A DNA stretch of 21,650 nucleotides, taken from contig CALRDW010000015.1 of the NCBI GenBank assembly GCA_943355025.1, positions 1-21,650 of the forward strand, read 5' to 3'. Positions 1,449 through 21,650 of this stretch are shown one piece after another. Position numbers and translations under genes: made by a program. A model generated the notes under the pieces. That model worked only from the letters and a program-made list of their open reading frames with translations. It did not search any database and had not been told where the DNA came from. The DNA is from Candidatus Magasanikiibacteriota bacterium (GTDB lineage: Bacteria; Patescibacteriota; Patescibacteriia; Magasanikbacterales; 2-02-FULL-50-9b). How positions within the stretch are numbered: the stretch's first letter is position 1; every line of letters starts with the position of its first letter.

Positions 1449-1494
1449 AAAAAAGAAAAAGCCCACGTTCAGAATTTGAGGTTCTGAACGTGGG
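1449..1494 (-). terminator. Intrinsic terminator of the NfeD-flotillin operon
   Basis: 13-bp perfect stem cccacgttcagaa (1462-1474) / ttctgaacgtggg (1482-1494) with a 7-nt loop. Followed on the minus strand by a T-run (plus-strand aaaaaagaaaaa 1449-1460). Lies 58 nt past the stop at 1552-1554. Confidence 0.75.
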
Positions 1495-1551
1495 CTTCAC
1501 GGTGTTCTGGTTAGAACCCGTGATGGGCCTGGGGCCGAGACTGATGCTACC

Positions 1552-3471
1552 CTAGACAGATGCGCTGTTGCCTTTGCTGGCCTTTGCTTCTGCCGGGGCA
1601 GCGGTCGCACTTTCGCGTCCGTGCGTAGCAGGCGCATCACCCGACTTTTTGACGCCGACGTGTTCCGCAACTGCACTGACGAGGTCGCCCATTTTTTGCA
1701 GGCTCTGTTCGATCGCATTGGTCGTTTTCGGCCCAGCTGAGCCCAGGAAACCTTCAATCATGCGAGCGCTTGATGTGCCCTGCATGAACGAGTCCTGGAT
1801 TTTTGCGAGGTCGCTCGGCGAGCCGATGAGCGTTGCTGTGACTTTCTCGAACAAATGAACCGAGGCCTGAGCTGTCGCGATCCGCACATCAGCCTCGCGG
1901 TTGATGTGGAGCTGCGCGATCACAAACTCTTGCGCAGCTTTACCATTTTTATCACGAGCTTCGAGCTCGGGAATCAAAACGTCGGTAACGCGGGACTGGT
2001 CAACTTTGACCTGCTCCGCCTGAACTTGAATCGGCACGAGAGCCAATGCTTTTTCGCCTTCCGCCTTTTTAACGTTGGCATTCGACTCAGCGTCAGCTTT
2101 CTTTTCGACCGCAATGGCGTCAGCCGTCGCCTTCGTTGTGATGGCTGATGCTTCTGCTTCTGCCGCCTTCTTTTTCGCGTCGGCCTCAGCGTTCAGCTTG
2201 TAGGCCGCGCCATCCGCCGCACGCTGCGTGGAGACGTAGGCTGTTTCAGCTGTTGCTTGCGCCGTAATGACCTGCTTTTGCTTGTCACGTTCGGCCGTGG
2301 CCACAATCCCGACAGTGATCACTGCCTGGTTTGCTGTTTCGCGCTCAGCTTCCGCCAAAGCGCGTGCTGTTTCAGCATTAACACGGACCGTTTCCGCAGT
2401 GGCAACCGCTGCCTGACGCTCCCGTTCAGCAACTTCGACGCTCTGATCAGCAACCGTAAGCGCGCGCTTCTTTTCTTTTTCCGCAACTTCCGTTGCCTGC
2501 GAGCGAACTTGCTCGGCAACGTCGAGCTGCTGCTGCTTGTTTACTTCCGCCAGCTGAACAGTTCGTTCAGAATCAATGCGTGCCGTTCCAGCCGCCTGGT
2601 TCTGTTCTGCGTTGACCTGAGCAATTTTTGATTTCTGATTTGCTTCGGCAACAGCTTGCTGCTGCTCGAGCGCCAGAATATCTTGGCGGGTTTTCACGTC
2701 CTGAGTTTTACGTGCCAGCTCACCTTCGCGTTCTCTTTGATTTTGGATCGTCTGGGCCGCCTGGGTGACTTCGGCAATCGTCTGCAATCCTTGCGCATCG
2801 AAGATGTTGTCCCTGCGGAGATTTTTCGGATCCGTTTGATCGAGTTTTGAGATCGTCGCTGTTTCAAGCGTCAATCCGTTGTGGGCAAGATCTCCTTCGA
2901 TCATCAGTGTGACTTGCTTGATGAACTCATCACGCTGGGTGTTGAGCTCTTCAAGTGTCTTCGTCGCTGCCACATTGCGCAGCGCCGACACCAATTTGTC
3001 TTCGACAAGCGATGTCACAAATGCGTCGTTGTTCATTTGATCACCAAATGAACGCGCGGCGCTTTTGATGCTTTCTTCGACAGGCGGAACCCGAACGAAG
3101 AACTCTGCTTTGATGTCAGCCCGCAGCTTGTCTTTCGTAATGAGAGCATCAACGCCCTCACGTTTAACCTCGAGCCGTTTCGAGCCGAGTTGTACCGTGA
3201 CAATTTGATGAATGACAGGGAACACAATTGCGCCGCCGTCTTGAACAACTTTTATACCACCCATGCCCGTGCGGACAAATGCCTCATTGGCTTTCGTCTT
3301 TACGTACAGTTTGGTGATAATAAGTAGGAGCGCTGAAACGAGCGTCAGCACAATGCCGACGACGATCAGGATGGAGGTTGGGAGGCTCCCGATTGGGTGC
3401 CCCATAATGCTCGCGGCGATTGGCCCCGCGATAAACGCAATTCCGAGAAACATGAGTAGGCCGAGTGGCAT
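1552..3471 (-). CDS. Flotillin-like SPFH/band-7 family protein (YqiK/FloT type), 639 aa
   Basis: N-terminal TM helix, then an SPFH core (GGIKVVQDGGAIVFPVIHQIVTVQL...). About 300 aa of Ala/Glu/Gln-rich coiled-coil (EA repeats) follow. GGAG Shine-Dalgarno ~8 nt upstream of the ATG at 3471. Immediately preceded by an NfeD-like gene, as in yqiJ-yqiK and yuaF-floT operons. Confidence 0.9.
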   Translation of the reverse strand: MPLGLLMFLGIAFIAGPIAASIMGHPIGSLPTSILIVVGIVLTLVSALLLIITKLYVKTKANEAFVRTGMGGIKVVQDGGAIVFPVIHQIVTVQLGSKRLEVKREGVDALITKDKLRADIKAEFFVRVPPVEESIKSAARSFGDQMNNDAFVTSLVEDKLVSALRNVAATKTLEELNTQRDEFIKQVTLMIEGDLAHNGLTLETATISKLDQTDPKNLRRDNIFDAQGLQTIAEVTQAAQTIQNQREREGELARKTQDVKTRQDILALEQQQAVAEANQKSKIAQVNAEQNQAAGTARIDSERTVQLAEVNKQQQLDVAEQVRSQATEVAEKEKKRALTVADQSVEVAERERQAAVATAETVRVNAETARALAEAERETANQAVITVGIVATAERDKQKQVITAQATAETAYVSTQRAADGAAYKLNAEADAKKKAAEAEASAITTKATADAIAVEKKADAESNANVKKAEGEKALALVPIQVQAEQVKVDQSRVTDVLIPELEARDKNGKAAQEFVIAQLHINREADVRIATAQASVHLFEKVTATLIGSPSDLAKIQDSFMQGTSSARMIEGFLGSAGPKTTNAIEQSLQKMGDLVSAVAEHVGVKKSGDAPATHGRESATAAPAEAKASKGNSASV

Positions 3472-3552: not shown

Positions 3553-4281
3553 TCAGCGGGAAGACAGCGTCGACGGAACATCCGCTGACACTGTATAGAT
3601 TCGCCGAAGCGAATCGTAACTTTGGATGAGAATAGGGCTGCCTTTTGTGAGCGCTCCATTCGTCGTTTTGCATCCAATTTGTTGTAGGTCACCACGCAAA
3701 TCGCGGACCTGCGCCTGACCGTAATTTTCATCAACACTAAGCGTCACAATGCCGCAGCAGCCGACCAGTTGATCGGCGGTAAGTGCGTAGGTTTCTGTTG
3801 TCGGCAAAATCCGGGCAACAAAGCCTGCGATCAACCGATGGATCAGAAGCGAAAGAGCTCCAGCGCCAACCAGCGAAATCCATACGCCGACTTCAATTGA
3901 CATGCCGCTTTCCGTCAGCACTTTGTTGCCGCAGTAACCTGCGGCGCCAAACACCAACATGAGCAGCATGAGCGAAACGGTAATTGGCACTTTGCCAATA
4001 CCGAGAATGACCAGCAATCCTCGAGGCAACGAGGTCCGAGCGCCACGCACTTGCGGAGCGAGATCGGGCCGCAGGTGCTTCAATTGATTGTGATCATCAT
4101 CATGATCATGGTCGTGGTGCGCATCATGGCCACCCAACGAGTGACCGAGGCCGCTATCATGACCGATGTCATGTCCAGCGCTGTCGTGCCCACCACCCGC
4201 GGCAACTCCAAGTGCCAGGACAATTCCCAGCAGAAGTGGAATTTCGAACACGAGATTTTGCCAGAGTAACACGGTGTCCAT
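3553..4281 (-). CDS. NfeD-like membrane protein (YqiJ/DUF1449-type flotillin partner) with a His/Asp-rich loop, 242 aa
   Basis: TM helix, then a 33-residue His/Asp/Gly-rich segment (GHDSAGHDIGHDSGLGHSLGGHDAHHDHDHDDDH). Three more TM helices follow, then a C-terminal ~70-aa Gly/Val-patterned segment typical of the NfeD OB-fold beta-barrel. GGAG Shine-Dalgarno 8 nt upstream of the ATG at 4281. An 81-nt gap separates it from the flotillin gene. Confidence 0.8.
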   Translation of the reverse strand: MDTVLLWQNLVFEIPLLLGIVLALGVAAGGGHDSAGHDIGHDSGLGHSLGGHDAHHDHDHDDDHNQLKHLRPDLAPQVRGARTSLPRGLLVILGIGKVPITVSLMLLMLVFGAAGYCGNKVLTESGMSIEVGVWISLVGAGALSLLIHRLIAGFVARILPTTETYALTADQLVGCCGIVTLSVDENYGQAQVRDLRGDLQQIGCKTTNGALTKGSPILIQSYDSLRRIYTVSADVPSTLSSR

Positions 4282-4381: not shown

Positions 4382-4467
4382 AAAAAAAGAGCCGCCCTAC
4401 CCATGTGCCAGTGCGGCAAACGGGTGAGGCGGCGAGCTTCTCGCGTGGGTTATCGCGCGAGAAGCTC
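4382..4467 (-). terminator. Composite 3' structure and terminator of the 4450..5517 gene
   Basis: A perfect 12-bp inverted repeat gagcttctcgcg (4434-4445) / cgcgagaagctc (4456-4467) has the TAA stop (4450-4452) in its loop. A second imperfect hairpin gccgccctaccc (4391-4402) / gggtgaggcggc (4422-4433) is followed on the minus strand by a T7 run (plus a-run 4382-4388). Confidence 0.5.
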
Positions 4468-5517
4468 AACGGTGTAATCGCTGTCAACAATTGCAGGAAC
4501 GAAGTCGAGTCTGTCGAATACGTCAGGAGCGCAAAGATGAGCAACATCGCGCATGGTTTGCACGATATTTCGAGCGGAAATCTCTGCGAGGCCGCGCATG
4601 TCTGTATCGTCGAACGGAACTTGAGGAAGCAACAGCGCTCTGCTAGATCTGGTTGGATCTTGGAGAAGATTTTGCCGCAATACTCCAATGCCAACGCGCG
4701 CTGATTCCGCGATTCCACCAAAACGGTGGTCGACAACTAGGGCGAGCGTTGTCAAATCTGCTCCGCCAACGCGACCGCCCATGACAAATATGCGTTCGCA
4801 GTGTTCGCGGGCAAGATGCGCTGCGATTTCGGACTGGAGAAACCATCGGTGTCCCTCCGCGAGCACCAACAGATCCTCGACAACACCGCCATTCATTTTC
4901 GCGAATGCGCGACATATGTCAGCTTCTGTTAAGTGCGCAAGAGAGATCCACTGGTTTTCCTGTGCTGAAAATACGTAGACTTTTCCGTCGTCCGTATCAT
5001 ATTTTGCAAGCACGGGAGTGATGCGCAGCGTGTGCGGCAGGCATTCGATATTTCGCACGAACTCCATGGCTGAATTGAACGCAGCGGTTTTGTCGCAATT
5101 ATGAAATGCACAACCAAGGTCGCGATCATTTCCCGATTCGTGGAGCATAACAGGGAGTAGGAGTCCTTGTTTTTTGCTCGTTTGTTGTGCGCGACGTGCG
5201 CGGCCAATCAAATCATCCTGGAATGTACTGAGACCGAATAACGGCGGGACACTTCCGAAGAAACGGTAGGGTTGATAACTACCCAAGGGTAGTCCCAAAC
5301 ATTTTCCGCTGAGCATTCTCCCATCGCCACAGCGTGTTACTGCTATGGAATTATTAAGCCTGTGTAGTGTAGCTACTCTGCGTGCCTCTTCTGCGAAAAA
5401 CTGATCTTGTGTGTGACGCGTGATGCCTAAGTAGTAGGCCCGTAAATCCTCCGGAAGTTGGTGGCGATGTGCCAGCGCTGGGGAAATAGTTCGTCCGATT
5501 CCCGCGGCCAAATTCAT
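4450..5517 (-). CDS. Hypothetical 355-aa protein, divergent paralog of 343..1347 with CGDGR ... H ... C motif
   Basis: The ATG at 5517 has a GAGGAG Shine-Dalgarno 7 nt upstream. The TTG at 5589 listed in the ORF track lies upstream of the predicted promoter and TSS. The protein shares C-G-D-G-R, GLLLPVMLHE and CAF blocks with the 343..1347 product (CMDGR, GFLILPGIHTE, CAAF). It carries a ~7-residue insertion between the His and the second Cys. Confidence 0.7.
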   Translation of the reverse strand: MNLAAGIGRTISPALAHRHQLPEDLRAYYLGITRHTQDQFFAEEARRVATLHRLNNSIAVTRCGDGRMLSGKCLGLPLGSYQPYRFFGSVPPLFGLSTFQDDLIGRARRAQQTSKKQGLLLPVMLHESGNDRDLGCAFHNCDKTAAFNSAMEFVRNIECLPHTLRITPVLAKYDTDDGKVYVFSAQENQWISLAHLTEADICRAFAKMNGGVVEDLLVLAEGHRWFLQSEIAAHLAREHCERIFVMGGRVGGADLTTLALVVDHRFGGIAESARVGIGVLRQNLLQDPTRSSRALLLPQVPFDDTDMRGLAEISARNIVQTMRDVAHLCAPDVFDRLDFVPAIVDSDYTVELLAR

Positions 5518-5592
5518 TGAGACACTCCTCGAAATGTGTTGGAGGTTTATAGACAAAGCCGAACGAAAAAGTTTTTCGGGCGGCAACAACTC

Positions 5593-5734: not shown

Positions 5735-6580
5735 TTAGAAAGATCCTGAGAAGACGATGCCGGTGTAGCCAGGGGTCGCGGTTGGCGCAAGGCGGAAGTT
5801 TGTCTGCTGCTGCTTGCTTGCTGTTGGCGGTTTTGCTTGCGAGGGTGGGCCCAAATAATCCCACACGCCCCACGCACCAATGCCGACTGCTGCCACTGCG
5901 AGTCCGATTGAAACAAACTGCTCTGTGCGCGCAGAGCGAACAAGTCCGTCGTACCGATCCTTATCGGCTTGCACAACTACGGCCGTCCCGAGCGCGTCGC
6001 TTGCCGTGCCTCGTGCGACAATGTATGTCGTCAGTGATGCAACCCCGAGCACAGTTGCTGCGCCGAATTTCACAAGTGGAAGCTCAGGGGCGGCTGCTGG
6101 CGGATCAGATTCGCGCACTGTTGCGGTTGGCGCATGACTGAGATCAATCAATTTTTGTCGCGCAGTCGCTTCTGCAAGTTCAACCGCGGCGACGCGAGCT
6201 TTGAGCGCGGTGTAGCGCGCGGCAGCATCGAGCTTCATGTCGTCGGCAGCGCCCATGAAATTTTTGACGCGGTCGTAGATTTCAATCGCGCGCCAGAGAT
6301 TACCAAGCGCCTCATAGGCTCGCCCCGCGTTGTAGAGCATGGCCGGCTTGCCGGTCAGTTCAAACAGATGCAGATAGGCCCACGCTGCTTTTTCAAAGAG
6401 CTTCGCGTCGAAATCTTCTTTTGCTTGGGCTGCTTCTTTTTCGTATTGGTTTACAATGCTCGGCGCTGCTGCTGCGGGGGCTGATGTTTTACGACCCGCC
6501 GCCGAAGCGTTCGTTGGTGCCAGCGTGATGCTTGCCGCCGCATAACAGACAAGTGCTGTGCACAATGGCTTGTACCGCAT
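5735..6580 (-). CDS. Secreted or membrane-anchored TPR-like hypothetical protein (281 aa from ATG 6580)
   Basis: The ATG at 6580 is preceded by a GGAGG Shine-Dalgarno (plus cctcc 6585-6589). The N-terminus MRYKPLCTALVCYAAASITLAPTNASAAG looks like a signal peptide with AXA-type cleavage. A helical TPR-like segment (AAWAYLHLFELTGKPAMLYNAGRAYEALGNLWRAIEIY) follows. There are two C-terminal hydrophobic helices. The upstream in-frame ATG at 6619 has no Shine-Dalgarno. Confidence 0.7.
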   Translation of the reverse strand: MRYKPLCTALVCYAAASITLAPTNASAAGRKTSAPAAAAPSIVNQYEKEAAQAKEDFDAKLFEKAAWAYLHLFELTGKPAMLYNAGRAYEALGNLWRAIEIYDRVKNFMGAADDMKLDAAARYTALKARVAAVELAEATARQKLIDLSHAPTATVRESDPPAAAPELPLVKFGAATVLGVASLTTYIVARGTASDALGTAVVVQADKDRYDGLVRSARTEQFVSIGLAVAAVGIGAWGVWDYLGPPSQAKPPTASKQQQTNFRLAPTATPGYTGIVFSGSF

Positions 6581-6689
6581 GATTCCTCCAGTATTCTGTG
6601 GAGCCCGAAAGTGGGTCATCAGAATAAATCACGGTAACACAAAACCGCGAGTTTGGCAAGGCCAGAGGGAGTCGAGCCCCAGGCCTCCG

Positions 6690-7620: not shown

Positions 7621-8214
7621 ATGATCGATACAAAGCTCATTGCAGAAGTTCGTGAAAAAACGGGCGCAGGAATTGTTGATGTAAAATCGGCGCTTGAGGA
7701 GGCGGGTGGAAATGCGGAAGTCGCGATGGAATTACTTCGCAAAAAAGGAATCGCAAAGGCAGGCAAAAAATCTGATCGCGTTGCGGGCGAGGGAATCGTG
7801 TATTCTTACATTCACAACAATAATAAAATTGGTGTGCTCGTAGAATTACGATGCGAAACAGATTTTGTTGCGCGAAATGAAGCGTTCGTGCAGCTCGCGC
7901 GCGATGTCGCAATGCACATTGCTGCGATGAATCCGCTCTACCTCGACGAATCACAGGTTCCACAAGAAGTTATCGATAAGGAGCGCGAAATTTATAAGGC
8001 AGAAATGGAAGGTTCAAACAAACCAGAAGAAATCATGGTAAAAATTCTTGATGGTAAAATCGCAAAGTTTTATACAGACGCTTGTTTGTTAAAACAGCCA
8101 TTCATCAAGGACGAGGCCGTGACAATCGAAGAACTTGTTAAGACTTCCGGCGGACGCATGGGCGAAAATATTCATGTAAAGCGCTTCGTGCGTTTTCATC
8201 TCGGACAGGAATAA
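7621..8214 (+). CDS. tsf: Elongation factor Ts (short form, 197 aa)
   Basis: The N-terminal UBA-like segment LIAEVREKTGAGIVDVKSALEEAGGNAEVAMELLRKKGIAKAGKKSDRVAGEG is the conserved EF-Ts signature. Conserved rpsB-tsf order. The length indicates the short (Thermus-like) EF-Ts lacking the duplicated core subdomain. Confidence 0.92.
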   Translation: MIDTKLIAEVREKTGAGIVDVKSALEEAGGNAEVAMELLRKKGIAKAGKKSDRVAGEGIVYSYIHNNNKIGVLVELRCETDFVARNEAFVQLARDVAMHIAAMNPLYLDESQVPQEVIDKEREIYKAEMEGSNKPEEIMVKILDGKIAKFYTDACLLKQPFIKDEAVTIEELVKTSGGRMGENIHVKRFVRFHLGQE

Positions 8215-8242: not shown

Positions 8243-8277
8243 GAAACAAAAACCGGCCTCAGCGGCCGGTTTTTTTT
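8243..8277. terminator. Bidirectional intrinsic terminator between tsf and the convergent 8289..8687 gene
   Basis: aaccggcc (8251-8258) / ggccggtt (8264-8271) stem with loop tcagc. Flanked by an A-run upstream (8243-8252) and T8 downstream (8270-8277). Confidence 0.8.
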
Positions 8278-8288
8278 GCGGAGCAATT

Positions 8289-8687
8289 TTAGGCAGTACG
8301 AAAGTCTATTGATTGGTCACGACTCAAAATTTCTTTTTCGTGTAACAGCCCAATTAGTTTGAAATTAAATACATCTTGGCGGCCCAATTTCATGCCAAAG
8401 CCATTATGAAAGGCATTCGTCTCTGCGCGGAATCCCTTGAACTCCTGTTTGAATTCTTTGAGATCTGCTTTAATTCCAGCCACATCTAACTTTGATTGAA
8501 CGGCATCAATCTTTAATTGAGCGACATCTGTCTTAAGCTCCAAGAGATCTGCTTGGATTGCGGTAAAGTGTTCCTCAAGCTCAGTATCGAGCTTTTTAAA
8601 ACGTTCAGAAGCTTCAGTTCTGAATGACTGAAGTTCTGTGAATATTGCCTCGAGTGTGATTTTTTTCTGGCCCTCCTTATGGGTCAT
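8289..8687 (-). CDS. Small coiled-coil hypothetical protein (132 aa from ATG 8687)
   Basis: The ORF-track N-terminal extension to 8807 would run through the DnaA-box cluster and the gap promoter. The internal ATG at 8687 is downstream of a minus-strand extended -10 (gTGaTATGCT, plus 8726-8735). The sequence is heptad-rich (LDTELEEHFTAIQADLLELKTDVAQLKIDAVQSKLDVAGIKADLKEFKQEFKGF). Confidence 0.5.
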   Translation of the reverse strand: MTHKEGQKKITLEAIFTELQSFRTEASERFKKLDTELEEHFTAIQADLLELKTDVAQLKIDAVQSKLDVAGIKADLKEFKQEFKGFRAETNAFHNGFGMKLGRQDVFNFKLIGLLHEKEILSRDQSIDFRTA

Positions 8688-8782
8688 ACAATGCGTGTTA
8701 GTGAATGATGTCGATTCTTGGATTGAGCATATCACGCTGAAAATGGTGCACAAGGGGCAAAAGTTGATAACTAAACAGTCGT

Positions 8783-8853
8783 TGTGGATAAGAAAAAAGT
8801 TATCCACTCGATTGAGTCTTTTTCATAGTTTATCCCTTTGGTAATCTGGATAA
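8783..8853. promoter_or_regulatory. Cluster of four DnaA-box-like 9-mers overlapping the gap promoter
   Basis: TGTGGATAA 8783-8791 (perfect) and TTATCCACT 8800-8808 (1 mismatch) form an inverted pair separated by gaaaaaag. TTATCCCTT 8830-8838 has 2 mismatches. TCTGGATAA 8845-8853 has 1 mismatch and abuts the extended -10. Confidence 0.4.
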
Positions 8854-11163: not shown

Positions 11164-12024
11164 ATGGAAACGCTTGAGGTGCTAGGACTGATGATTCTTA
11201 CTGTTGCTGCTGCGGTTGTGGCGAGCAGGCTTATGAACCGAGCTCAGCGTGCCAGAGAGGCCGAAGAGGTGAAGAAATTCGAAGCTGACAAGAAGCGGCG
11301 TATGACTCCGGTTGTACCAGCGGCAGCCGTGGCCGCGGTAGCTCCTGTGTCAGATGTCGGCGAGGATCATACGGAATTGGGGGCCGATGCAGACGACGAT
11401 GAATCCGAAGAGGTCGTTGAAAAGGAAGAAGATCGCTTTGAAAAGATCGAGCTCTTTTTTAGCGGTATTACCAAGGATGGCCGGTATTTTCGTTTGAAAC
11501 TTCGGCTCAGCGATGTCCTAATGTTTACATCGGCATACGACCGCGCATTCCAGGACGAGGAATCGGAGACGTTCGAGGAATTTGCGTGTGAAGAACTCGG
11601 CACCATGCTTGAATCGTGCGTTGATGCATACGCAACGACGCGAACGTATCAGCAGCTGGTTGATAGTCGAGCGGATTTCGCTTACGAGATCGAAGTGTTT
11701 TTCGCGGGGCTATCGAACGCAGATGGCATTGCGAATGGGTATGCCTGTAGTCTTGCTCCTGATTCTGAAGCTGAGGAGGATGCAGAAGATCTGGGCTGGA
11801 ATTACAAAAAGTTTTTCTCGGTTCGGTGGATTCGTTCGGACACTGGTGCAATTTACAGGGCGCATTACGTACGGATCGCACAGCAAGCGGCGGTGGTTGC
11901 TCCTGCGACGACTGCAGAAGAAGCTGAGGGCGGCGCGGACAAAAAACCAAGCGATGTCAGTGCCCCATCAAAATTGGCAGCAGCAGCACGCGCACAGCTC
12001 GGGGTCGAGCTCACCGCGTGTTGA
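11164..12024 (+). CDS. Hypothetical acidic protein with N-terminal membrane anchor (286 aa)
   Basis: One N-terminal TM helix (LGLMILTVAAAVVASRL), then a highly acidic and low-complexity N-terminal half (DADDDESEEVVEKEED) and an Ala-rich tail. Strong promoter and Shine-Dalgarno upstream, intrinsic terminator downstream. Locally GC-rich (~56%) relative to neighbours. Confidence 0.6.
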   Translation: METLEVLGLMILTVAAAVVASRLMNRAQRAREAEEVKKFEADKKRRMTPVVPAAAVAAVAPVSDVGEDHTELGADADDDESEEVVEKEEDRFEKIELFFSGITKDGRYFRLKLRLSDVLMFTSAYDRAFQDEESETFEEFACEELGTMLESCVDAYATTRTYQQLVDSRADFAYEIEVFFAGLSNADGIANGYACSLAPDSEAEEDAEDLGWNYKKFFSVRWIRSDTGAIYRAHYVRIAQQAAVVAPATTAEEAEGGADKKPSDVSAPSKLAAAARAQLGVELTAC

Positions 12025-12147: not shown

Positions 12148-12996
12148 ATGACTTCCTTCGATTCCTGCCCATGTGGCAAAAAATGCTCTGAAAAAGGTGC
12201 GTGTGAAATGTGTTCAACCGATGCTGGCGGAGGACGATGCGGTTCATCTATTGGTGGCCGCCGTAACATGCACGCGATTGTTATTTTATTTTTAGTGATC
12301 GCGCTCGGAACGTACGCTGCAAAAAATATCAAACAGATGCGTTATATAGGTAAGCCTGACACAGGTCCACACACAATCATGGTTTCGGGCGACGGAAAAG
12401 TTACTGCTACACCGAACATCGCCGTAACAAACGTTGGACTTGTAACAGAAAAAACAAATGTCGCAGATGCACAGCTCGAAAATTCTCAGAAAATGAATGC
12501 GCTCATCGTCGCGATGCAACAACTCGGCATTTCGAAAGAGGATATTCGTACAGCGCAGTATCAAATTTATCCGAAGTATTCCTACGATCAAAAAACAGGG
12601 AGCTCGATTACGGGGTATACCGTTACACAAAGCGTTGAGGTAAAAATTCGTGACCTTACAAAAATTTCGCAGGTTCTTGCAAGTGCAGGGTCAGCAGGTG
12701 CGAATCAAGTCAGCGGTGTTCAATTTACAGTCGAGGATCCAAAAGTTCTCCGGGCAGAGGCTCGTGAAGAGGCGGTTGCTGACGCAAAAGAAAAGGCAGT
12801 AAAACTTGCAGCAGAGCTTGGCGTCGAGCTTGGAAAGCTTATTAGTTACAGTGAGACAACTAATAATAATGCGCCGTATCCGCAGATGATGATGCGGGAT
12901 TTAAATGTTGGTGCGTCACAGGAAGGCACGCCGAATATTCAATCAGGCACACTTGAAATCACTTCTGAAGTTTCGATTACCTACGAGATTGAATAG
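12148..12996 (+). CDS. SIMPL/DUF541-family (YggE / BP26-like) periplasmic protein. Start is uncertain: ATG 12148 adds a Cys-rich tail; ATG 12268 begins at the TM helix
   Basis: The C-terminal 230 aa show the SIMPL pattern of YggE-like 26-kDa periplasmic proteins (TVTQSVEVKIRDLTKISQVLASAGSAGANQVSGVQFTVEDPKVLRAEAREEAVADAKEKA). A hydrophobic signal-anchor MHAIVILFLVIALGTYAA begins at 12268. The ORF-track start at 12103 precedes the likely -10 (TATACT 12115-12120). Confidence 0.7.
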   Translation: MTSFDSCPCGKKCSEKGACEMCSTDAGGGRCGSSIGGRRNMHAIVILFLVIALGTYAAKNIKQMRYIGKPDTGPHTIMVSGDGKVTATPNIAVTNVGLVTEKTNVADAQLENSQKMNALIVAMQQLGISKEDIRTAQYQIYPKYSYDQKTGSSITGYTVTQSVEVKIRDLTKISQVLASAGSAGANQVSGVQFTVEDPKVLRAEAREEAVADAKEKAVKLAAELGVELGKLISYSETTNNNAPYPQMMMRDLNVGASQEGTPNIQSGTLEITSEVSITYEIE

Positions 12997-14284: not shown

Positions 14285-15106
14285 GTGCTCAATCGGACTC
14301 GATCATTAAAAAAGAAAATTCGTGATTTGCGCGTGGAAGTGTTCGCATTTCGTGTTGCCGATGCGTTTGAGTGGCTTCATCAGAATTCGAGCGTAAGTTC
14401 TGTTGTTAACTACATGACCAAACAGCCGGGTTATTCCAGTTCGGTTGGTCTTTTGTTGGCATGCGTGGCGATGATCTTGGTGCTTGCTTTCATGGCAGTA
14501 ACTGGTCGGCCATTTGCGTGGTATGCCACGGCCCTCGTTGCTCTCGTGGGAGTCGGCGCATTTGTCTCAGCGCTGATTGTTTGTTTATGCGCCGTTCTTT
14601 CGATGCGCGAATCGCGACTCAGCGAAAAAGAACGATCTCAGATTGGTCGTTTGCACGCCTCTTTCCGGGAAATACAGTCCGCGGCAAAAAAAGCTGAGCG
14701 ACAGTTTCATGCAACAGCCGTGATCAAAGCGCTGCATCGTGGCGAGAAGATTTCGCAGGGTGACGTGTTCGAGCGTTCAGTGACGCTGGTTGACGCAGCC
14801 ATGATTGAGGTAATGACCGAATTTCAGGTACTCAGCGATGTATGTCAGAAAACCTGCGTTACTAAGATTGCTGAGCTGCCCGTCGAAATAATTCATACTG
14901 CAGCGGATTTCCCTATTGTTCCTATTCACCTGAGTAGAATAGCGGATAGCCTTGTGGCTTATGAGAAAGCCGTGGCCGATGCGTCTGCTGGCGGAGACGA
15001 GGCAAAAAAGAGTGTTGATGAGGCGCTGCAACGATTCGAGCAATCTCTAAATACTCTCGTGGAGTTTGGCGGAGTCATGGCTCAGAAAGTCCCTGCTCTA
15101 GCGTAA
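14285..15106 (+). CDS. Hypothetical membrane protein (two TM helices, C-terminal soluble helical domain), 273 aa from GTG 14285
   Basis: The GTG at 14285 has a GGAGG Shine-Dalgarno 6 nt upstream. The ORF-track TTG at 14246 lies within the promoter. Two hydrophobic helices (LLLACVAMILVLAFMAVTG; ALVALVGVGAFVSALIVCLCAVL). No recognisable family. Confidence 0.6.
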   Translation: MLNRTRSLKKKIRDLRVEVFAFRVADAFEWLHQNSSVSSVVNYMTKQPGYSSSVGLLLACVAMILVLAFMAVTGRPFAWYATALVALVGVGAFVSALIVCLCAVLSMRESRLSEKERSQIGRLHASFREIQSAAKKAERQFHATAVIKALHRGEKISQGDVFERSVTLVDAAMIEVMTEFQVLSDVCQKTCVTKIAELPVEIIHTAADFPIVPIHLSRIADSLVAYEKAVADASAGGDEAKKSVDEALQRFEQSLNTLVEFGGVMAQKVPALA

Positions 15107-15198: not shown

Positions 15199-16761
15199 AT
15201 GCCAACACCATTTAAACCAACGGTTCTTATTATCAACGACGGCTGGGGCGTTGCGCCTGACAGCGATGGAAACGCAATCACGCGTGCAAAAACATCAAAC
15301 TTTTCAAAGTGGGTACGGACGTATCCAGCGATGACAATTAAATCTTCAGGAGTTGAAGTCGGATTGTCGTGGGGTGAGATGGGAAATTCTGAAGTTGGGC
15401 ATTTAAATATCGGAGCAGGGCGCGTGTATTATCAAACACTTCCACGCATTGGAAAAGAAATTGGGGATAAAAGTTTTTATCAAAACGCAACACTTTTGAA
15501 AGCTGCGGAGTACGCGAAAAAAAATAACAGCAAGCTACATTTATTCGGAATTGTTTCTGCAGGAAATGTTCACGGATCAGACGAACATTTATTTGCACTT
15601 CTTGGATTTTGTAAAACACAAGGATTGAATAATGTTTTTGTTCATGCAATTCTTGATGGGCGTGACTCGAAATTTGATTCTGGCAAAATGTTTATTGAAC
15701 GCACGATTGCGAAAATGAAACAGTTGGGTGTTGGGAAAATCGCAACGCTTGGCGGACGATTTTATGCGATGGATCGAGATAATCGGTGGGATCGAGTTGA
15801 AAAAATGTATCGCGTTATGACGGAGGGCGGAGTGTCGGCTGGTGAACCGCTTGCTGTAATTCAAAAATCATACGACGCAAAAGTTTTTGACGAAGAATTT
15901 ATTCCAGTGGTCATAGATCCAGCAGGCAAAATAGAAAAAAATGATGCGGTGATATTTTTTAATTTTCGACCAGACCGCGCACGTGAAATTGCGAAAGCAT
16001 TTGTATCTCCGGATTTTGATAAATTTCCGCGCGAAAAAATTGATCCGCTTTTTTTTGTAACCATGACCGAATACGAGAAGGGTTTGCAAACGGAGGTGTG
16101 TTATCCGCCAGAGGTGATACAGATGACGCTTGCTGAGACGCTGTCCAAAGCCGGCAAGACGCAATTTCATATTGCGGAAACAGAAAAGTACGCGCATGTG
16201 ACATTTTTTTTGAACGGGACGATTGAAGAGGCGTGGCCTGACGAAGACCGTGCGATTATTCCATCGCCGAAAGTTGCGTCATATGCAGAGGCTCCAGAAA
16301 TGTCGGCACTCGATGTTGCAAAAGCGGTTGTCAAAGCTGTTGAGTCGGATAAATACGATTTTATTGTGATCAATTTTGCAAATGCGGATATGGTTGGTCA
16401 CACAGGGGACGTGGCGGCGACAGTAAAGGGCGTAGAGGCGGTTGATAAAGCAATGGGAATGGTTGTGGCGATAACGCTCGCGAAAAATGGCGCGATATTT
16501 ATTACTGCGGACCACGGTAATGGCGAAGAGGTTTTAAATTTGCGTACAGGCGAAAAAGATAAGGAGCATTCGACGAATGCAATCCCATTTTTGTGCATTA
16601 GCAAAGACTGGGAAGGCCAGACTGGTCCCGCAGGAGAGGTTCCAGACGGGGATTTGACGCTCGTGCAACCTGTTGGCATGCTTGCGGATGTTGCGCCAAC
16701 GATTTTGAAAGCAATGGGGGTTGAGCAGCCGAAGGTTATGACGGGGAGACCGTTGATTTGA
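15199..16761 (+). CDS. gpmI: 2,3-bisphosphoglycerate-independent phosphoglycerate mutase (iPGM)
   Basis: 520 aa. N-terminal VLIINDGWG, GNAI and GEMGNSEVGHLNIGAGRVYYQ (Mn-binding iPGM signature). C-terminal ITADHGN with a second metal site. Confidence 0.93.
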   Translation: MPTPFKPTVLIINDGWGVAPDSDGNAITRAKTSNFSKWVRTYPAMTIKSSGVEVGLSWGEMGNSEVGHLNIGAGRVYYQTLPRIGKEIGDKSFYQNATLLKAAEYAKKNNSKLHLFGIVSAGNVHGSDEHLFALLGFCKTQGLNNVFVHAILDGRDSKFDSGKMFIERTIAKMKQLGVGKIATLGGRFYAMDRDNRWDRVEKMYRVMTEGGVSAGEPLAVIQKSYDAKVFDEEFIPVVIDPAGKIEKNDAVIFFNFRPDRAREIAKAFVSPDFDKFPREKIDPLFFVTMTEYEKGLQTEVCYPPEVIQMTLAETLSKAGKTQFHIAETEKYAHVTFFLNGTIEEAWPDEDRAIIPSPKVASYAEAPEMSALDVAKAVVKAVESDKYDFIVINFANADMVGHTGDVAATVKGVEAVDKAMGMVVAITLAKNGAIFITADHGNGEEVLNLRTGEKDKEHSTNAIPFLCISKDWEGQTGPAGEVPDGDLTLVQPVGMLADVAPTILKAMGVEQPKVMTGRPLI

Positions 16762-16831
16762 TTTTCAACAGGATTCGGAAGTTTATAAGTAGTACAATAC
16801 AGTGATTCAACTTAGACTCAAAAGTAAAAAC
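16762..16831 (+). repeat. Copy A of a ~70-bp intergenic direct repeat that starts immediately after the gpmI stop codon
   Basis: ttttcaacaggattcggaagtttataagtagtacaatacagtgattcaacttagactcaaaagtaaaaac is ~93% identical (about 5 mismatches in 70) to 21577..21647. Both copies begin 1 nt after a stop codon (TGA here, TAA there). Confidence 0.7.
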
Positions 16832-16894
16832 CAATACTTCTCAGGGAGAGATAAACAGGAACTCCCGTCGAAGTAATAGTTTTTACTTTTGAGT
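16816..16894. other. Long composite hairpin overlapping the 3' end of repeat copy A; candidate structured RNA or recombination site
   Basis: Outer 16-bp stem actcaaaagtaaaaac (16816-16831) / gtttttacttttgagt (16879-16894). Nested tacttc (16835-16840) / gaagta (16870-16875) and gggag (16844-16848) / ctccc (16862-16866). About 27 bp of pairing in total. No T-run follows. Confidence 0.55.
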
Positions 16895-17106
16895 ATACGT
16901 TCATTCAAGTGTTATACTGCTCCCATGCTTCCTAATCCTTTTCAAAAACCTCTCACAGAGTTTAAAGACACAGATCCTCTTAATTGACGTCCAATTCGCG
17001 AAATGGGATCGAAATGGCCAGCACGCACACTTGAATGCATATAGGCCGCGGAGTTAAATTCGGAATATTGGAGTTGGGGTAGGCAAAGTACGTCGAGGTT
17101 TGTTTT

Positions 17107-17135
17107 TTGTCCCCGCGGTGCAGCTTTGCTATACT
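17107..17135 (+). promoter_or_regulatory. Promoter of the pap2-manC-mltG-queA operon (TTGTCC-17-TGcTATACT), near-leaderless
   Basis: -35 TTGTCC 17107-17112; TG 17127-17128; TATACT 17130-17135. The ATG at 17146 is 10 nt downstream. No Shine-Dalgarno. Confidence 0.5.
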
Positions 17136-17145
17136 GCAAACCACT

Positions 17146-20814: not shown

Positions 20815-21576
20815 ATGAAAAATCCTGCCAAACTTACGCTTTTTATCAGTTTGTTTACAATTGTTTTTTTTGATCTACGTGCTCTTGGTTCTGGCATGCT
20901 GTACGATGTAGAATCGTTAATTGAAAATCTTGGCGGCGTTACCTATTTGTATTCAACAATTGGAACTATTTTTGCAATTTTTGGTGCGTTTACTATTTTA
21001 TCAGAGTGGGAACGATGGAAGGCGCTTGTGTCAGCTGTTAAAGATGAAGTGAGGTCGCTTCAAGAGCTGTGGCTGTGGTCAAAGCATTTTCCGTTATCAG
21101 TTCGAAAGAGATTCCGCCAGCTTCTCAAAGCGTATGTTTTGAGTGTACAGAGTAAGGGCTGGATGCTGCTTGAAAAAGGACAGCGACATAAGTCAGTTGA
21201 TGATATTTTGTCGCAGATGCACGATGAAATTTTTTTACTTGCGAAGGACAAAACTCATTTGCTCGATACATCATTTTCGCTTTTTACAGAGCTCTTAAAA
21301 TATCGAAACGAACGATTGAATTTGAGCGCCGCAAATATGCCTGCGATTTTACGCAACGTATTTATTTTGTCGGATGCTTTGCTCATAGGCCTCTCACTTT
21401 TTATCGGTGTGCGTAGCATTTCTCTCGCATATATTTTTACACTTGCGGTTGCAGTGCTCGGCTATTCAATTTATTTGCTCATAGATGACCTCGATCATCC
21501 TCTTCAGGCGGGTGGGTGGCATTTGACGACGAAAGATTACGAGGAGTTGTCGAGGACGTTCGAAGAGGAATCGTAA
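20815..21576 (+). CDS. Hypothetical integral membrane protein (TM, ~110-aa helical soluble region, two C-terminal TM helices), 253 aa
   Basis: The ATG at 20815 follows the extended -10. The ORF-track TTG at 20776 precedes it. Hydrophobic helices LTLFISLFTIVFF, IGTIFAIFGAFTIL, ILSDALLIGLSLFIGV and LAYIFTLAVAVLGYSIYLLI. No family recognised. Confidence 0.6.
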   Translation: MKNPAKLTLFISLFTIVFFDLRALGSGMLYDVESLIENLGGVTYLYSTIGTIFAIFGAFTILSEWERWKALVSAVKDEVRSLQELWLWSKHFPLSVRKRFRQLLKAYVLSVQSKGWMLLEKGQRHKSVDDILSQMHDEIFLLAKDKTHLLDTSFSLFTELLKYRNERLNLSAANMPAILRNVFILSDALLIGLSLFIGVRSISLAYIFTLAVAVLGYSIYLLIDDLDHPLQAGGWHLTTKDYEELSRTFEEES

Positions 21577-21647
21577 TTTTTCAACAGAATTCGGAAGTTT
21601 ATAAGTAATACAATACAGCGATTCAACATATACTCAAAAGTAAAAAC
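21577..21647 (+). repeat. Copy B of the ~70-bp direct repeat, starting right after the stop codon of 20815..21576. It ends at or just before the window end (21650); the last three bases diverge from copy A
   Basis: tttttcaacagaattcggaagtttataagtaatacaatacagcgattcaacatatactcaaaagtaaaaac aligns base-for-base with 16762..16831. The partner arm of the hairpin seen in copy A would lie beyond the window. Confidence 0.7.
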
Positions 21648-21650
21648 TAT

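Follow-up and report, generated by a model that had tools for sequence, protein, structure and literature searches.

The window analysed here, the whole 21,650-nt stretch of a Candidatus Magasanikiibacteriota contig (CALRDW010000015.1 of assembly GCA_943355025.1), carries two direct copies of a repeat, each of which begins where a gene ends. Copy A follows gpmI, which encodes a 520-aa 2,3-bisphosphoglycerate-independent phosphoglycerate mutase (Pfam Metalloenzyme and iPGM_N), while copy B follows the gene for a bestrophin-like membrane protein and is cut off by the end of the window. The features of the two copies are as follows.

16759-16761, + strand: TGA stop codon of the iPGM gene, which adjoins copy A directly and lies at the ancestral stop position
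16762-16983, + strand: copy A, the full repeat unit of 222 nt, identical at 189 of 222 positions to copy B (positions 1963-2183 of contig L003), with one gap
16762-16948, no strand assigned: imperfect palindrome of 187 nt (left arm 16762-16848, loop 16849-16861, right arm 16862-16948)
16816-16894, no strand assigned: inner perfect 16-bp stem with apical stems and loop, an exact match on both strands
16889-16918, + strand: promoter-like site in the right arm, with -35 TTGAGT (16889-16894), an 18-nt spacer and -10 TATACT (16913-16918)
16925-16987, + strand: truncated ORF of copy A, an ATG and 19 further codons (MLPNPFQKPLTEFKDTDPLN) closed by TGA at 16985-16987
16949-16983, + strand: non-palindromic 35-nt tail, codons 9-20 of the ORF, aligned in both copies
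21574-21576, + strand: TAA stop codon of the bestrophin-like gene, adjoining copy B, at a natural C-terminus (alignment with 11 homologues)
21577-21650, + strand: first 74 nt of copy B, the rest lying beyond the window end (full copy, L003 1962-2183)

Elsewhere in the window, an SPFH/Band_7 gene (1552-3471, - strand) is paired with a gene for a YqiJ_N membrane protein (3553-4281, - strand). No Pfam family scored above its curated cut-off in the ORFs at 343-1347, 4450-5589, 5735-6619 and 8289-8807 (all - strand) or in those at 11164-12024 and 14285-15106 (both + strand).

The initial annotation had described the repeat as about 70 nt long, and blastn within the window recovered this stretch at the same place (16762-16831 against 21578-21647, 93% identical, E = 2e-25). 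Copy A starts, as had been stated, at the base following the gpmI TGA, and copy B starts one or two bases past the TAA, the number turning on whether one counts an extra T at 21577. Exact-protein look-ups led to overlapping contigs in other assemblies of this organism, and copy B was completed with contigs L003 (from another sample) and L001. Contig k141_329289 from ENA covers the window from position 41 to 64 nt past its end, and L003, which reaches 330 nt beyond the stop of the bestrophin-like gene, is the sole contig that runs past copy B. None of the contigs reached through queA, the bestrophin-like gene, gpmI or the Band_7 gene extends beyond the left end of the window. Compared over their full length, copy A and the completed copy B are 85% identical (E about 1e-68 to 1e-70, by query direction). 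The G+C content of the unit is about 36%, and that of the surrounding 400-nt composition window is 0.40.

A local duplication created during assembly, which had been named as a possible source of the apparent identity, is ruled out, because the two copies differ and each is reproduced in independent assemblies: an independently assembled contig from another sample contains copy A without a single difference over 400 nt, and the 74 nt of copy B within the window are identical in L003. A fold-back chimera or other assembly artefact was rejected on the same grounds and because the arms of the palindrome are imperfect. At the boundaries of the unit, TTGA stands on both sides of copy A (16758-16761 and 16984-16987), which may be chance or a target duplication; copy B has no equivalent. 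We found no target-site duplication consistent across both copies, although with n = 2 copies this is weak evidence. In the A/B alignment, both copies have TAA where the unit ends on the right, and a TAA/TRA target model requires a mismatch in copy A.

The palindrome matches its own reverse complement at 70% over 191 nt. Folding the + strand of 16750-16965 gave a main hairpin of 59 bp whose outermost pair joins 16770 to 16939, well above the total of about 27 bp of pairing first estimated. The 16-bp stem at its core is exact, as previously reported (ACTCAAAAGTAAAAAC at 16816-16831 and its complement at 16879-16894, with 47 nt between). Copy A folds with a dG of -71.4 kcal/mol as RNA (z -8.0) and -36.5 kcal/mol as DNA (z -6.6); its folds span z -5.6 to -8.0, and both strands fold equally well. 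The palindrome has terminal inverted repeats, TTTTCAACAGGATTCGGAAG and CTTCCTAATCCTTTTCAAAA, which agree at 17 of 20 positions on our reading of the 4-arm alignment described below. The ends of the full 222-nt unit, in contrast, are not mutual inverted repeats, and the terminal inverted repeats are confined to the 187-nt palindrome. Nothing on the left side of the palindrome mirrors the 35-nt tail: there the two copies are flanked by coding sequences unrelated to each other.

An intrinsic terminator is a short G+C-rich stem directly followed by a U-tract. The element has only TTTT (16939-16942) after the A+T-rich base of its 59-bp hairpin, and a terminator scan finds no site within it. The earlier statement that this is not a canonical terminator stands, and the accompanying one that no T-run follows is nearly right, these four bases being the only exception. 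Terminator-like hairpins of the canonical kind lie elsewhere in the window: one at 1458-1498 (- strand), after the Band_7 gene, has 17 bp and a T-run, and an 11-bp hairpin at 8248-8274, between tsf and a convergent 172-aa ORF, has A/T runs on both sides. The organism therefore appears to use ordinary terminators.

Such a stable hairpin directly 3' of stop codons on the transcribed strand could be a structured RNA conserved for its fold, whether it acts as a small RNA, marks a processing site or serves as a stabiliser in the 3'-UTR. The stability of copy A (z -8) agrees with this idea, as does one compensated pair in the apical stem, which reads GGGAG/CTCCC in A and GGGGG/CCCCC in B. We compared the two copies arm by arm in an alignment of A-left, B-left and the reverse complements of A-right and B-right (96 columns). 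All four arms are identical in 52 of the 96 columns, 17 columns are old left/right asymmetries common to both copies, and 18 columns are private to one arm (A-left 1, B-left 3, A-right 3, B-right 11). The apical pair is the sole compensated change, and 11 of the 18 single-arm changes cluster in the right arm of B, where they disrupt the 16-bp stem. One compensated pair against 18 single-arm changes since the copies split gives no sign of selection for pairing; with two sequences this is a weak test, and nothing in it points to selection on an RNA fold.

Extending the contig also revealed that the hairpin has decayed in copy B (dG -48.8 kcal/mol, z -3.5). When copy B is placed on the structure of A, 48 pairs are unchanged, 3 are changed on one side and still pair, 10 are broken and 1 falls in a gap. 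The right arm of A is complementary to the left arm of B at 28 of 28 positions, better than to its own left arm, which points to decay from a perfect DNA palindrome. The simplest reading of these comparisons is that a more perfect ancestral DNA palindrome has been decaying independently in each arm. That both strands fold equally well also argues against a structure selected as RNA. Rfam gave no match to the element at the gathering threshold (the weaker scores, 24-28 bits where 211 is required, were chance resemblances to models of microRNA precursors with long hairpins), a tRNA and tmRNA scan found none, and nothing homologous occurs in relatives. We therefore consider a selected structured RNA very improbable, and the small-RNA, 3'-UTR or stabilising role proposed initially would be at most a passive consequence of transcription, given the lack of an Rfam family and of a compensatory excess and the decay of copy B.

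On its right side, the repeat holds a promoter-like site together with the initial 20 codons of an ORF that looks coding. The site was found by a consensus scan and is a consensus match only; its -10 is preceded by TGt (16910-16912), and copy B has a matching site at L003 2089-2118. The ATG at 16925 lies 6 nt past the -10, which ends at 16918, and this is the geometry of a leaderless mRNA. The minimum-free-energy fold of copy A leaves neither the -35 nor the -10 nor the UG of the AUG unpaired. The two copies are homologous as far as 16983, and the ORF of copy A stops one codon later, at codon 21. In copy B, the matching ATG opens an ORF of at least 56 codons (L003 2125-2292) that is still open at the contig end.

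Because this frame is long and its codon usage coding-like, we take the copy B ORF to be real. Under a codon-usage log-odds model built from 19 genes of the window, it scores +13.0; windows of 56 codons score 14.7 +/- 5.6 in frame in real genes, -23 +/- 9 off frame and -11 +/- 9 antisense. Beyond the repeat, the remaining 36 codons reach +5.95, whereas their other two frames give -2.3 and -25.6. Random sequence of this composition would stay open for 55 codons with a probability of about 0.03. A word-indexed homologue search and Pfam gave no match to the copy B ORF, an exact look-up in the protein collection did not contain it, and tblastn found no match in phages and plasmids and nothing significant in the loci of relatives. 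Nothing in this 56-codon fragment appears to mark it as a transposase.

The host PAP2 gene downstream of copy A has an arrangement that resembles the site in the element. A promoter-like TTGTCC-N17-TATACT preceded by TGc (window 17107-17145) ends 10 nt before its ATG, and this arrangement from promoter TGCTATACT to ATG is conserved in a relative, L081 (about 14570-14600). The conserved placement of this promoter near the ATG makes the promoter-start geometry look native to the lineage, and suggests that leaderless or near-leaderless mRNAs may be usual in this lineage of Patescibacteria.

GpmI homologues that carry an organism name belong to Candidatus Magasanikbacteria, Candidatus Uhrbacteria and the 'Patescibacteria group', at about 61-64% identity, and closer relatives reach 76-84%. 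We compared the window with five related loci (about 64 kb of distinct sequence), whose GpmI is 78-84% identical. The gene order gap-pgk-SIMPL-eno-gpmI is kept in all five, and L075 and L081, whose sequences reach far enough upstream, have rpsB-tsf in place as well. The C-terminus of GpmI falls at the same residue in five of five relatives (MTGRALI, MTGRALM or MTGRSLI), and the element was found neither after gpmI nor elsewhere in their ~64 kb. Relatives that lack the element, together with the unchanged ends of GpmI and the bestrophin-like protein, argue that the lineage gained it right after ancestral stop codons.

The DNA 3' of gpmI differs in every relative (L074 11564-15949, L075 11561-14091, L081 11561-14596, L082 and L083), and holds a pair of genes of ~110 and 700 aa, a 736-aa gene on the opposite strand, or a DUF6922/AbiEii pair. 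By this comparison the 3' flank of gpmI is, in the relatives, a probable hotspot of gene turnover and rearrangement. The idea that a post-gpmI gene of the relatives survives, as a relic, in the short ORF of copy A was rejected, as their ~110-aa proteins are unrelated to it. In L074 (GCA_023246805.1, GpmI 83% identical), long intergenic palindromes lie at 7676-7900 and 12441-12600, with arms of 55 and 49 nt. These stretches fold at z -11.2 and -8.6, with the neighbouring terminator hairpin included in the folds, and each palindrome sits between a U-run terminator hairpin and a promoter (TGGTATAAT or TGGTATACT) just before the next ATG. The L074 palindromes have no sequence kinship to each other or to the element in the window, and the four other relatives contain no comparable long intergenic palindromes.

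The relatives also bear on the suggestion that the copies are recombination sites, of the integron attC or att kind, that bound a mobile 4.8-kb block from the PAP2 gene to the bestrophin-like gene. Integron attC sites span about 57-141 bp between R'' and R' cores (RYYYAAC ... GTTRRRY) and form an array next to intI. The two direct repeats do flank this block, each follows the stop of an ORF as attC sites do, and TTTCAAC at the left end fits the inverse core RYYYAAC at 6 of 7 positions. However, PAP2-manC-yceG-queA is syntenic in L081 with no flanking repeats, so the two copies do not bound a mobile block; the genes in question are housekeeping genes, the right end has no GTTRRRY core, the unit, at 187-222 nt, is longer than attC sites usually are, the window encodes no integrase, and the repeat itself contains a promoter-like site and a gene start. 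We give an attachment or recombination site next to no credence. Reconstruction of an empty site from L081 was tried and rejected, since only the PAP2 promoter could be aligned.

Only two copies of the unit are seen directly, and we looked for others in sequence collections and in the way contigs break. A profile of A and B matched copy A at 3e-76 in nhmmer and, over 670 kb, found the known copies only. Two 60-nt nhmmer matches in Planctomycetaceae MAGs were judged to be chance, the matching strand having stops in three frames. Among GTDB representative genomes, a degenerate 20-mer for both termini gave 53 loci, all of them chance matches of 20-25 nt. In JGI metagenomes, a 22-mer from the right end had 0 matches and a 19-mer from the left end 7 chance matches; two patterns had 0 matches in IMG/VR, and blastn with the element found no match in phage and plasmid collections.

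Contig ends, in contrast to these searches, fall repeatedly inside both copies. In Logan unitig and contig files, every 31-mer of an accession is distinct by construction (PMC12424806). Logan contigs of two runs end at 16822, inside copy A, and one starts at 16954, where its first 30-mer ends at the repeat boundary, 16983. Breaks in copy B fall at 21603 (run ERR5863128) and 21606 (run ERR5863107), and one MEGAHIT contig and the source contig of the window itself also end within copy B. The longest runs shared among A, B and their reverse complements are 25 or 28 bases, with no common 31-mer, and neither copy shares a 31-mer with the remaining window. As breaks occur inside the copies despite this, other sequences must share 30-mers with A and B. 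We infer that these are further copies or strain variants, and strain variants could cause some of the breaks. In ERR5863128, the shared 30-mer at copy B begins with TAAT, that is, with the TAA stop, which hints that a second sequence joining at this break would likewise follow a TAA. The left end of the window is also an assembly stop, with one contig ending at 41 and two at 643; positions 1-41 are very A+T-rich and hold no copy of the element.

These breaks weigh on a second alternative, a non-mobile segmental duplication, by which the 222 bp would be the native 5' region of an ordinary gene after copy B, copied once into the spacer between gpmI and PAP2. Such an origin would fit the fact that two copies only are seen directly, the asymmetry of the unit, which ends inside a coding sequence, and the rearrangement hotspot downstream of gpmI in relatives. 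Similarity between A and B cannot, however, explain contig breaks in both of them. Both left boundaries lie exactly at the stops of unrelated genes, which would not be expected twice for a random junction, and a divergence of 15% would need an old duplication kept with no obvious function. We regard a single duplication of this kind as distinctly unlikely.

The unit resembles several known families in part. Correia elements (CREE) of Neisseria are intergenic, about 100-160 bp long, with inverted-repeat ends, outward sigma-70 promoters and insertion at TA; once co-transcribed, they form hairpins to which RNase III binds or which it cuts (PMC2649163). The window unit is likewise palindromic and intergenic, carries an outward promoter-like site and adjoins TRA stops. 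It differs in that it has no sequence similarity to CREE, pairs through almost the whole of its 187 bp, has an asymmetric 35-nt coding tail and no demonstrated TA duplication, resides in a host of the Patescibacteria and is seen in two copies, against more than 100 for CREE. ERIC/IRU elements of Enterobacteria and Yersinia are imperfect palindromes of about 127 bp that lie in transcribed intergenic regions and affect the stability of flanking mRNA. Like them, the window unit is a long imperfect palindrome in transcribed spacers near stop codons that folds equally on either strand; unlike them, it is longer and has a promoter-like site and an ORF start, and the two are unrelated in sequence.

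The left end of insertion sequences offers a further comparison. IS200/IS605 elements have a subterminal hairpin at the left end, insert 3' of a fixed 4-5-nt target and carry a Y1 (TnpA) or TnpB gene. Here the hairpin is present, the left flanks of A and B differ (TTTGA and CGTAA, which share no target tetranucleotide), and the 56-codon ORF fragment has no Pfam match. To our knowledge, the N-terminus of the copy B ORF is also unlike those of Y1 transposases. At the left end of IS200, one hairpin acts as a terminator that stops incoming transcription, and another sequesters the start region (PMC4513863). The window element similarly would set a left-end hairpin against incoming transcription and hide its own start in an inverted repeat, and neither has a target-site duplication; it differs in that a single predicted 59-bp hairpin would do both jobs and that the mRNA would be leaderless. 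REP/BIME sequences are G+C-rich palindromes of 20-40 bp, often tagged GTAG/CGTC (PMC3733652). The window palindrome has 187 nt, about 36% G+C and no GTAG/CGTC tag.

Among the four candidates named by the initial annotation, a MITE-like element is the closest to the evidence: the palindromic unit, its inverted termini, its restriction to one lineage, its absence from relatives and the indirect signs of further copies agree with that proposal, whereas the 35-nt tail, the promoter-like site and the ORF start do not. MITEs are marked by small size, terminal inverted repeats, a target-site duplication, many dispersed copies and an autonomous IS with the same ends. The unit, at 187-222 nt, is below about 500 bp and has only a 20-codon ORF start at its right end. 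Prokaryotic MITEs (reviewed in PMC3184786 and PMC10969869) have in common with it that they are small, intergenic and lineage-restricted, with a long stem-loop and terminal inverted repeats, here those of the 187-nt palindrome; the window unit differs in its asymmetry, in the two copies seen directly and in having no target-site duplication common to both.

In its plain form, the MITE explanation holds that the 187-bp palindrome is mobile and non-autonomous, moved by an unseen transposase in trans into TA/TNA-type targets such as stop codons, and that the outward promoter and start codon are carried incidentally, as in Correia elements. Much of the evidence agrees with this. The unit is palindromic throughout, with termini that agree at about 17 of 20 positions, its size lies within the MITE range, its interior has stops in all six frames, relatives lack it, and both copies lie at a TRA stop codon, with TAA also at the right end of each. 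Moreover, L074 has other long intergenic palindromes, and Correia elements generate promoters, one of which supplies the A of an ATG (PMC2649163). Against it, homology between A and B extends 35 nt past the right inverted repeat, this tail is in frame with an ORF that is still coding-like beyond the repeat, the 187-bp unit has no clean target-site duplication, and it has no known parent IS. A plain MITE is unlikely in our view.

In the interpretation that we favour, at about even odds, the 222-nt unit forms the left end of a gene-bearing element that is multi-copy, confined to this lineage and probably mobile, and copy A is a solo remnant of it. The repeat, its palindrome, the spacing of the promoter-like site and ATG, the coding-like ORF, the truncation in A, the absence from relatives and the pattern of decay are observed, and mobility, additional copies, promoter activity and leaderless translation are inferred. 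The palindrome would, on our reading, be inherited from a more perfect ancestor and be decaying, and would not be maintained by selection for an RNA fold. The element is most likely new in sequence and ordinary in kind, akin to palindromic intergenic repeats or the hairpins of IS ends.

A gene-bearing element of this kind would work as follows. At the DNA level, transposition or duplication would carry it to the first position after a stop codon. Copy A, after gpmI, would have retained the hairpin, the promoter and 20 codons, while copy B would still have its ORF downstream. When the upstream operon is read through, both arms would be transcribed, and the predicted 59-bp hairpin would form at the 3' end of the upstream mRNA, where it may impede polymerase and 3' exonucleases or be a substrate for RNase III. 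The same hairpin would bury both promoter hexamers along with the UG of the AUG, which are paired in the fold, so that the start would be shielded and transcripts from outside would be unable to translate the ORF of the element. By contrast, the spacing from the -10 suggests that transcription from its own promoter would begin at or near the A of the ATG; these transcripts would lack the left arm and be translated leaderless.

A bolder version of this interpretation sees the unit as a stop-codon-seeking hairpin cassette of Patescibacteria, one of a set of mobile terminator-promoter modules that rewire operons, with the L074 palindromes as further families. Such a cassette would land after a TRA stop, its long hairpin would end the upstream message, and its leaderless promoter would restart transcription. 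We regard this as a long shot.

A full-text literature search on miniature inverted-repeat elements in Patescibacteria returned two unrelated papers, and we found no description of repeat elements of the Candidate Phyla Radiation. If our favoured interpretation is right, the unit is a concrete case of a small element able to end the transcript before it and to provide, within a streamlined genome, a promoter for leaderless mRNA. In addition, the element explains the fragmentation of assemblies of this organism at its copies, which is useful to know in binning and finishing such genomes.
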